In this document: positions 17,131 to 17,930 of the stretch, one piece after another
Layout: the number at the start of each line of letters is the position of its first letter
Numbering within the stretch: position 1 is the first letter of the stretch
Virus record (IMG/VR): IMGVR_UViG_2531839440_000003
Location: 1 to 41,145 of that record
Direction: 5' to 3' (one strand)
DNA: 41,145 nucleotides
DNA from: a virus
Taxonomy: Duplodnaviria > Heunggongvirae > Uroviricota > Caudoviricetes
The notes under the pieces: generated by a model
What the model was told of the DNA's origin: nothing
The model's input: only the letters and a program-made list of their open reading frames with translations
The model's database searches: none
Position numbers and translations under genes: made by a program

Positions 17131-17268
17131 CATATCCGCGCCACGCCCGGCGCACATCAAAAAACCACAGAGCCTTTCAGGGGTGAGCTTACGGGATGGT
17201 CAGTGTGACTTTCTCTGTGGGCTGGTCACCCCCGGGCGCAGGCTCACCCACTAAAAGGAAAAGTCACG

Positions 17269-17694
17269 ATGTTTGGTATTTTCAAAAAGAAAACCCGCAA
17301 GGCCATTACCGAAGTGAAGAAGATGGAGAACCGTGACGCAGTGGAGGCGACCGTCTGGGGCGCGTACTCCATTGCATACGCTGACGGCACCTGTGACGCG
17401 AAAGAAATCGCGGTACTGGAAAAAACCATTGCAGCACTTCCTGTCTTTGCGCCGTTCTCCGGTGAGATTGCACAAATGAGTGCAAATATCCGCGCCCGTT
17501 ATGAAGCGTCGCCGCGTTCTGCCAATGCCGAAGCTCTTCGTCAGCTGGCTGATGTTGCCGGTACTGATGATGCAGTTAATGTGCTGTGCCTGTGTCTGGA
17601 TATCGCTGACCAGGACGGTATCGGTCAGGAAGAAGAAGCGCAACTGAAGAAAATTGCGCAGGCGCTGCAGTTGCCGCTGGAGCAGTACCTGTGA
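17269..17694 (+). CDS. TerB-like helical domain protein (cargo gene)
   Basis: 141-aa soluble acidic protein (CDAKEIAVLEKTIAALP...DIADQDGIGQEEEAQLKKIAQAL); TerB-like call from memory, unverified. Confidence 0.5.
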   Translation: MFGIFKKKTRKAITEVKKMENRDAVEATVWGAYSIAYADGTCDAKEIAVLEKTIAALPVFAPFSGEIAQMSANIRARYEASPRSANAEALRQLADVAGTDDAVNVLCLCLDIADQDGIGQEEEAQLKKIAQALQLPLEQYL

Positions 17695-17843
17695 AAAGTG
17701 CGCGCCTTGTGCTGGCTGTCATCCTGTTGTTTCTGGTAGTGGTGGTTGATTTCACCGGACGACTGATGTCGGTGCTGGCAGATGGTGTGCTGGTGGCGAT
17801 GGCGCTGGTCGTGCTCCGGCCTTTACTGCGTAAATCTGAATAA
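17691..17843 (+). CDS. 50-aa hydrophobic membrane peptide, translationally coupled to TerB-like gene
   Basis: GTG start overlapping upstream stop (cTGTGA); VKSARLVLAVILLFLVVVVDFTGRLMSVLADGVLVAMALVVLRPLLRKSE; GGAGC RBS; below track cutoff. Confidence 0.4.
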   Translation: MKSARLVLAVILLFLVVVVDFTGRLMSVLADGVLVAMALVVLRPLLRKSE

Positions 17844-17852
17844 CATCACACA

Positions 17853-17913
17853 AAAGGCATCTGCGGATGCCTTTGACGGGGTGTTTTTTTACGGGTCGCT
17901 GGTGGCCCTTTTT
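17853..17913 (+). terminator. Terminator region after cargo operon
   Basis: Perfect 9-bp stem AAAGGCATC/GATGCCTTT with TGCG loop, then T-runs GTTTTTTTA and CCTTTTTTATTTT. Confidence 0.45.
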
Positions 17914-17930
17914 TATTTTCAGGAGGAAGT

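Follow-up and report, generated by a model that had tools for sequence, protein, structure and literature searches.

The stretch of viral DNA analysed here, IMG/VR record IMGVR_UViG_2531839440_000003 (Caudoviricetes; 41,145 nucleotides (nt), hereafter the window), carries a two-gene unit, tciAB, between its phage transfer RNA (tRNA) genes and its lysis genes. Judged by sequence, the module is almost certainly the tciA-tciB pair of phage P1 type, set in the accessory-gene (moron) slot of a phiP27-like prophage. An initial annotation of the same DNA had held that no described system has this composition; that claim falls, as the pair is named tciA-tciB in the P1 record and both proteins have PHROG and Pfam families of their own. 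The gene pair is already known, and the part worth following up is the structured RNA leader in front of it. With confidence just short of evenly balanced, we propose that this leader may be the first known member of a class of translational leaders so far undescribed, portable and either pseudoknotted or bistable, which would travel with the accessory genes (morons) of Erwinia jumbo phages and of temperate phages of enterobacteria.

The leader lies within the 138 nt of untranslated sequence that separate a terminator-like hairpin from tciA, and its predicted minimum free energy is -54.1 kcal/mol (z = -2.4). Two sets of helices can be drawn in it. The nested set comprises helix H1 (17138-42 with 17149-53, forming a 5' hairpin at 17138-53) and a long interrupted helix, at the base of which an anti-Shine-Dalgarno stretch CCUUU (17173-77) pairs with the Shine-Dalgarno (SD) sequence AAAGG (17254-58). 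A short pairing of AG (17179-80) with CU (17251-52) belongs to the same nested fold, as does helix c (17181-88 with 17242-49), which encloses helix e (17197-203 with 17222-28). Two further helices cross this fold: helix a, formed by CCACAGAG (17165-72) and CUCUGUGG (17213-20), and helix L, in which the H1 loop (17144-50) pairs with 17232-38.

Covariation supports both sets. In a structure-blind MAFFT alignment of 35 sequences (A5), 94.1% of cells were paired, compared with 38-48% when the partners were slid, and 12 pairs had changed on both sides, compared with 5.0 +/- 1.4 in shuffled alignments (0 of 500). A more diverse, model-fitted alignment (A8) contained double changes in 20 of the 27 nested pairs and in 4-9 of the pairs in slid controls. 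RNAalifold, run on the first alignment, recovered the nested fold only and missed the crossing helices, and the covariance model, built on that nested fold, misaligned the inner region of diverged copies. For this reason the crossing helices of the diverged copies were parsed by hand and checked by script. The helices parsed in this way were complementary and in the same order in 13 representatives of five sequence types, with the exception of one mis-parsed H1. When the positions of the crossing helices were tested, the combined p value was about 1e-8 for helix a and about 6e-5 for helix L; both values are rough, since the sequences are related. G-U pairs are common in A5, for example at columns 36/133 and 98/125; given their frequency, and as they pair on the plus strand only, the leader presumably acts as plus-strand RNA.

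Conservation of the leader exceeds that of the gene it precedes. In phage JLK-2012, which has other tRNAs upstream, leader identity is 86.5% and TciA identity only 41%; for PPyecE_EH1910 the two values are 95% and 43%, and the leader of the Erwinia jumbo phage Caitlin still shows 71% identity over 105 nt. When viral contigs and collected loci were scanned with an exact pattern, 200 leader matches came up, and among the 185 with a downstream open reading frame (ORF) of at least 60 amino acids, 182 precede TciA. The inspected matches without TciA were mostly tciA pseudogenes, together with two spurious hits and a single copy that precedes the gene for a solute-binding protein. The covariance-model search reached further, finding diverged leaders ahead of several unknown genes, of antirepressor genes of KilAC and P22 type, and of genes for an HNH endonuclease and a protein with weak resemblance to GT2. 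In the Shiga toxin (Stx) 2 phage VT2-Sakai such a copy precedes ant, between R and Rz (L227 2500-2653); in HK639 it precedes HK639_13 within the tail operon (L225 1496-1629), and in phi80 it precedes ORF x171.28 near cos (L226 1484-1617). Members of the family measure about 130-155 nt, contain five to seven helices and end in the SD sequence and ATG of the next gene, with that SD sequence buried in the predicted fold. Most of the diverged copies have a terminator-like hairpin and T run in the same position 5' of the leader.

The jump from a nearly identical leader (86-95%) to a TciA of only 41-43% identity is also what a recombination boundary would look like, and the leader marks the 5' edge of an inserted cassette, beside a terminator. 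The element could accordingly be read at the DNA level, as a linker or boundary for moving accessory cassettes or as a promoter region. We consider this distinctly improbable, because leader types with little shared sequence keep their helices through compensatory changes, because the common G-U pairs can pair only in plus-strand RNA, and because the element always ends in the SD sequence and start codon of the next gene; moreover, a crude promoter scan found no promoter-like site (see below). The reading as an RNA leader finds no counterpart in catalogued families. Rfam 15 contains no match at E <= 1 within the leader helices (17138-17258) and none that overlaps six diverged copies, although C4, c4-a1b1, isrK and STnc100 RNAs were detected elsewhere in those loci. 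Hepatitis delta virus (HDV)-like, twister and other ribozymes as well as c4/IsrK-type RNAs were considered as identities for the leader and set aside for want of an Rfam match, the HDV topology also conflicting with the conserved contact of the H1 loop. Full-text literature searches for leader sequence strings or for a described motif returned nothing relevant. A leader peptide was likewise rejected: a 46-amino-acid ORF with an ATG start (17196-17336) begins in the leader and extends into tciA in another frame, and we take it as fortuitous because no counterpart was seen in the shorter, diverged leader types.

How the leader might act is suggested by folding energies. In each of the five leader types tested, the nested, SD-closed fold coincides with the energy minimum or comes close to it, and folds that enforce helices a and L lie 5.5-12 kcal/mol above it. 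In transcripts that end just past the 3' strand of helix a, helix a forms part of the minimum in three of the five types, and at the next transcript stage helix L does so in two of the five. The leader would gate translation of tciA in one of two ways. Helices a and L could form co-transcriptionally and leave the SD sequence briefly open to ribosomes before the stable closed fold takes over; alternatively, the leader could adopt a single pseudoknotted fold that is opened by another factor, by processing or by temperature. Members of the class could serve as kinetic translation timers, as sensors of a ligand or factor, or as processing or self-cleaving insulators that free inserted genes from their context.

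The first gene behind the leader encodes a protein, TciA, that the initial annotation had described as acidic, helical and TerB-like, a description that the analysis supports. TciA scores 32.4 bits against the Pfam TerB family (PF05099; cut-off 24.4; E = 1.3e-7), matches phrog_632 ('tellurite resistance') over its full length (E = 2.8e-64) and is 86% identical to P1 TciA over all 141 residues without a gap (E = 2e-91). Its isoelectric point (pI) is 4.8 overall; residues 21-141 are acidic (pI 4.2) and residues 1-20 basic (pI 10.3). The AlphaFold2 model, computed from a 50-sequence alignment, is a six-helix bundle with a mean predicted local distance difference test score of 88 and a predicted template modelling score of 0.83. 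In a Foldseek search of this model against the PDB, the sole high-probability match was 2H5N (probability 1.0, TM score 0.53-0.58, but E = 0.014), which we take to be a TerB-like structure. Sequence searches added little: the PDB returned only noise (polynucleotide phosphorylase, E = 0.04), and NCBIfam gave no match above its cut-off and a weak match to DjlA. Alignments of diverse homologues place a twofold acidic motif of the form D-G-x5-E at D39 (G40) E46 and at D116 (G117) E122, invariant or nearly so, and the invariant acidic columns are D23, D39, E46, E66, D95, D116 and E122. The N-terminus, MFGIFKKK (MFGIFKKKTRKA...), is modelled with low confidence and predicted to be disordered, with G3, F5, K7 and K8 conserved; it would serve as a membrane-binding tail.

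The second gene encodes TciB, the hydrophobic 50-amino-acid peptide with a GTG start that had been read as overlapping the upstream stop codon, a reading that the sequence confirms. The start overlaps the tciA stop codon as GTGA, with GGAG at 17679-17682, 8 nt before the GTG, and translation of tciB is likely coupled to that of tciA. TciB scores 54.2 bits against Pfam DUF3927 (cut-off 25; E = 1.4e-14) and matches phrog_1470 ('TciB-like inhibition of cell division or resistance to colicin'; E = 3.3e-23). The peptide is 68% hydrophobic, with hydrophobic stretches at about residues 6-19 and 25-42 joined by DFTGR, and is positively charged at both ends, from which we infer a two-helix membrane hairpin with both termini inside (N-in/C-in). 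It aligns with P1 TciB (48% identity), P7 Upf69.4, JLK-2012 TciB and the corresponding peptides of Pollock, an N4-like phage, and Caitlin, an Erwinia jumbo phage, with a core of DFT...S.L.DG.LVA. The tciB frame is intact in 101 loci representing 60 distinct DNA sequences, its variable sites are distributed over the codon positions as 38/25/49 with the third most variable, and the pairwise ratio of nonsynonymous to synonymous substitution rates (dN/dS) relative to the window copy is 0.08-0.59. Together with the DUF3927 score above the cut-off, this sequence pattern argues that tciB is not a chance ORF; it is genuinely coding and under purifying selection. A profile search of 1.8 billion cluster representatives found 91 TciB clusters only, nearly all of them stand-alone peptides of 40-90 amino acids. 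The few longer matches, and database proteins (P0180, P0247, P0293 and P0304) that seem to join TerB to DUF3927 (two proteins) or DUF3927 to unrelated N-termini, were examined and discarded, as their junctions are frameshift-like or chimeric. With a stop/start overlap of only 4 nt, single-base errors would produce such fusions, and because their junctions are artefactual they provide no evidence that TciA and TciB interact.

Linkage of the two genes was counted by a profile hidden Markov model scan of 106 sequences with TciA homologues, comprising the window and collected loci. A TciB ORF lies directly downstream of TciA on the same strand in 101 of these 106 loci, a figure that overstates independence because the 97 loci retrieved with an alignment of closer homologues are mostly near relatives of one another. 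Of the five loci that break the pattern, one is a deletion junction, one has a truncated tciA, one stops at a contig end, one (from Rosenbergiella) has a diverged 55-amino-acid two-helix peptide in the tciB position, and the last belongs to a Vibrio phage. The case for independent co-occurrence comes from a handful of distant phages: the pair recurs where TciA is only 31-42% identical, in P1/P7 phage-plasmids, lambdoid prophages, N4-like podophages, Erwinia jumbo phages and a Pseudomonas phage, and it extends in this sense beyond a single prophage lineage, a point on which the initial annotation had staked its proposal. In the exceptional Vibrio phage, vB_VpaP-MS02 (L008 378-1926), a gene for a TerC/Alx-family membrane protein precedes TerB and no TciB-like peptide is present; by analogy, the presence of this membrane protein instead suggests that TciB fills the role of membrane partner. 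Among 5,426 complete E. coli genomes, an 831-bp tciAB query found at least partial matches in 819, with at least 80% coverage in 165. The peptide has not been overlooked in these genomes, as the Prokaryotic Genome Annotation Pipeline (PGAP) annotates both genes in E. coli RefSeq entries, as 'tellurite resistance TerB family protein' and 'DUF3927 family protein'. 'Actinobacillus phage vB_Apl-pPE4' (PP818812.1) shares 90-95% DNA identity with the E. coli prophage studied here across tciAB and the lysis genes, and enterobacterial-type tciA also occurs on contigs labelled as a Bacillota metagenome-assembled genome, Pseudomonas lundensis, Acinetobacter and Kocuria (L010, L014, L024 and L025); these cases look like host mis-assignment or contamination.

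The unit and its surroundings are listed in Table 1. It is bounded by terminators and lies between the tRNA and lysis genes, as first described; the terminator scan returned 7 sites with a hairpin and T run where 1.5 were expected, and terminator hairpins lie in the 87 nt between the end of tciB and the first holin ATG. The Q-type antiterminator gene lies about 2.2 kb upstream. A prophage of E. coli FDAARGOS_1077, for which RefSeq lists a P27-family small terminase, matches the region at 99.4% identity from about position 15265 on. The FDAARGOS_1077 prophage carries Ser/Thr kinase and PP2C phosphatase genes between Q and the methylase (L001 5574-7078), where the window has other DNA.

Table 1 Features of the tciAB region and further copies of the leader; positions refer to the window unless a locus is named.
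Feature	Position	Strand	Evidence or remark
Q-type antiterminator gene (DUF1133/Phage_antitermQ)	14530-15084		
DNA methylase gene	15745-16794		
Three phage tRNA genes (CAT anticodon, Arg-TCG, Arg-TCT)	16844..17093	+	ARAGORN, Rfam tRNA matches, RefSeq annotation of the near-identical E. coli FDAARGOS_1077 stretch
Intrinsic-terminator-like hairpin AGGCTCGCTTCGGCGGGCCT and T run, directly 5' of the leader	17107..17134 (hairpin 17107-17126)	+	Terminator scan
Structured 5' leader RNA	about 17138..17258; covariance-model match 17121-17274	+	Folding, alignments, covariance model
tciA (141 amino acids, ATG start, TerB-family)	17269..17694	+	Pfam, PHROGs, P1 identity, AlphaFold2
tciB (50 amino acids, GTG start, DUF3927-family membrane peptide)	17691..17843	+	Pfam, PHROGs, alignment, conservation
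Two tandem terminator-like hairpins closing the unit	17857..17915	+	17893-17908 and T run by scan; 17857-17876 read from the sequence
Two tandem holin genes (Phage_holin_8, Phage_holin_3_7), then M15 peptidase endolysin gene, as in phiP27	17931-18968		First holin ATG at 17931
Further leader copies	L224 1292-1448; L159 1013-1168; L011 6470-6599; L023 5070-5220	L224 copy -	

The proposed correspondence of this position to the Shiga toxin slot withstood comparison with phiP27, whose gene order is methylase, tRNA-Ile, tRNA-Arg, stx2eA/B, holin, holin and endolysin and whose lysis cassette is 92% identical to that of the window. The flanking genes are the same and stx2e stands in place of tciAB, which argues that tciAB occupies exactly phiP27's toxin slot. 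The tRNA with the CAT anticodon (16844-16919) is called Met by ARAGORN and Ile in RefSeq and for its phiP27 equivalent (ileZ-like, presumably lysidine-modified). Unrelated phages, too, have tRNA genes, of differing species, at a distance of up to about 1 kb from tciAB (Asn, Thr and Ile in P1/P7; Asn, Thr and Gly in JLK-2012; Trp and Cys in Erwinia phage Caitlin; Arg in Pseudomonas phage ZY21), a closeness that may reflect a shared accessory-gene hot spot only. A weak STnc100-like match (17032-17137) overlaps the last tRNA and the terminator in the window, and copies of STnc100 and of the AgvB/AsxR small RNA family lie directly downstream of tciAB in prophages of enterohaemorrhagic E. coli type (L224 5801-6490, minus strand; L182 7615-7870).

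The position immediately upstream of two holin genes and the endolysin gene, on the same transcript, raises the possibility of an accessory to lysis timing, with TciB as an antiholin-like protein and TciA as its regulator, tuning the two downstream holins; TciB also has the small size and two-helix membrane architecture of many holins and antiholins. We regard such a role as very improbable. The P1 pair lies beside tRNAs and ban, the pairs of N4-like and jumbo phages lie in early or other regions, and all of these are far from lysis genes; phiP27 has the same lysis cassette without tciAB, and TciB matched no holin family in Pfam or PHROGs.

With regard to expression, a crude sigma-70 consensus scan found 0 promoter-like sites in 16700-18100, and we propose that transcription of tciAB during lytic growth would come mainly from the late transcript antiterminated by Q. 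The lack of a promoter-like site, the upstream terminator, the late transcript and the carriage of the pair by strictly virulent phages (N4-like and jumbo) fit a function in lytic growth better than a defence of the lysogen. Action in the lytic phase is also indicated by the P1 genes, which lie in the C1-repressed ban operon of the early lytic phase. Our favoured, though tentative, interpretation, which we would not call probable, is that tciAB is a minimal Ter-like module for membrane guarding or exclusion whose translation is gated by the leader. TciA would dock on the inner membrane through its N-terminal tail and TciB, and together they would sense or stabilise the membrane against depolarising insults such as superinfecting phages or pore-forming colicins, so that the infected cell would be protected until programmed lysis. 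Shango, Bunzi and Dionysus are defence systems that contain TerB domains and for which membrane surveillance has been proposed, and a role in competition with superinfecting phages has been proposed for the stand-alone TerB of Erwinia jumbo phages (PMC7824862).

Several points weigh against this interpretation. As the promoter scan is a crude consensus test, a promoter active in the lysogen may exist. The two-state model of the leader derives solely from energy calculations, and physical contact between TciA and TciB is inferred from their linkage only. Neither protein matches PADLOC-DB 2.0 at E <= 10, in a 2023 library that predates the 2025 Dionysus preprint; models for Shango and Bunzi are presumably included in it. 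No TerC, TerD or TerZ gene lies nearby, so that the classic Ter phenotypes may not apply. In P1, tciA, tciB and tciC proved non-essential for plaque formation in a CRISPR interference screen (PMC10695390), the operon has been lost in about half of one P1 subgroup (PMC9603915), and in the searchable literature we found no experimental test of tciAB function.

A presumed sensor domain paired with a small hydrophobic peptide of two helices could also be read as an abortive-infection or toxin-antitoxin-like device, in which a membrane-damaging TciB is checked or triggered by the TerB sensor TciA and the prophage kills or arrests the attacked cell. TerB proteins adjoin pore-forming or membrane effectors in Dionysus and Bunzi, and the overlap of the two ORFs fits coupled translation at a fixed stoichiometry. 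We nonetheless consider this unlikely. The failure to match PADLOC counts here as well, no lysogen promoter-like site was found, and the unit lies behind a terminator in the late operon. Furthermore, suicide of the host cell would harm the strictly virulent N4-like and jumbo phages that carry the pair, and the toxicity of TciB, which is kept under purifying selection, is a supposition.

TciA's membership of the TerB family and its invariant acidic motif point in another direction, towards lysogenic conversion or stress resistance, in which the pair would bind metal ions and make the cell more tolerant of oxidative stress or of metals, tellurite and other oxyanions, or else would alter cell division. 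Anantharaman and colleagues reportedly proposed in 2012 that the acidic motif of TerB chelates metal, and the pairing of TerB with a TerC/Alx-type metal-homeostasis membrane protein in the Vibrio phage fits such a role. Against it, ter phenotypes require several ter genes, and the remainder of the ter cluster is absent at the window locus. The tci names derive from homology only, and both the position on the late transcript and the virulent carriers speak against a trait of the lysogen. This explanation, too, appears doubtful, and membrane guarding or exclusion during lytic growth remains the one we prefer.

The pair is widespread, occurring in Stx-type prophages, P1-like phage-plasmids and N4-like and jumbo phages, and TerB domains have since been found in validated defence systems. 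If the leader acts generally as a gate on expression, it would account for the control of accessory genes inserted in late operons. It would then add a regulatory layer to genes of Stx phages such as ant, and would represent a compact natural RNA part.

The closest known relatives of the module are the tciA-tciB-tciC genes of P1 and P7 (AF234172 and AF503408). Beyond the 86% identity of TciA in P1, they share with the window a homologous TciB hairpin of 50-54 amino acids, a TciB start that overlaps or abuts the TciA stop, and nearby tRNA and DNA methyltransferase genes. Unlike the window, where no ORF lies between 17843 and the holin ATG at 17931, P1 and P7 encode a third peptide, TciC, and have no structured leader; P1 tciABC is expressed from C1-repressed ban promoters, whereas the window pair lies in a Q-dependent late region. 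TciA resembles the TerB (PF05099) of terZABCDE clusters in its Pfam match, predicted all-helical fold and repeated acidic motif, and an association with the inner membrane, expected from the literature for TerB of the ter cluster, would be expected for TciA likewise. In contrast to that cluster, the window pair comes without TerC, TerD, TerE or TerZ, has a methylase, tRNAs, holins and an endolysin as neighbours, includes a dedicated 50-amino-acid membrane peptide, and is carried by a phage and transcribed together with its late genes. Shango, Bunzi and Dionysus likewise join a TerB domain to membrane-associated partners; the window pair differs from them in being carried by phages, virulent ones included. 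It has neither the DinA nor the four-transmembrane, pore-forming DinC of Dionysus, and nothing equivalent to the helicase/ATPase partner of Shango.

In its genomic setting tciAB resembles the morons of lambdoid phages, which, as far as the account of Juhala et al. (2000) given in PMC4104026 goes, are inserted between genes that are neighbours in a sister phage and end in a terminator. Like a moron, it occupies a slot downstream of Q/pR' that tolerates insertions. Unlike morons, it shows no promoter of its own in the crude scan and begins instead with an upstream terminator and the structured leader. For the leader itself, the nearest parallels are the SD-sequestering, bistable leaders exemplified by the lambda cIII mRNA and by the folding pathway of the hok mRNA. 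As in these, the SD sequence is paired in the lowest-energy fold, conserved helices are incompatible with the nested fold, and the predicted folds of nascent transcripts differ from that of the full-length RNA. The window leader is unrelated to them in sequence or in Rfam and is larger, with its five to seven helices; it is also portable, standing before unrelated genes, and its crossing helices could instead form a true pseudoknot.

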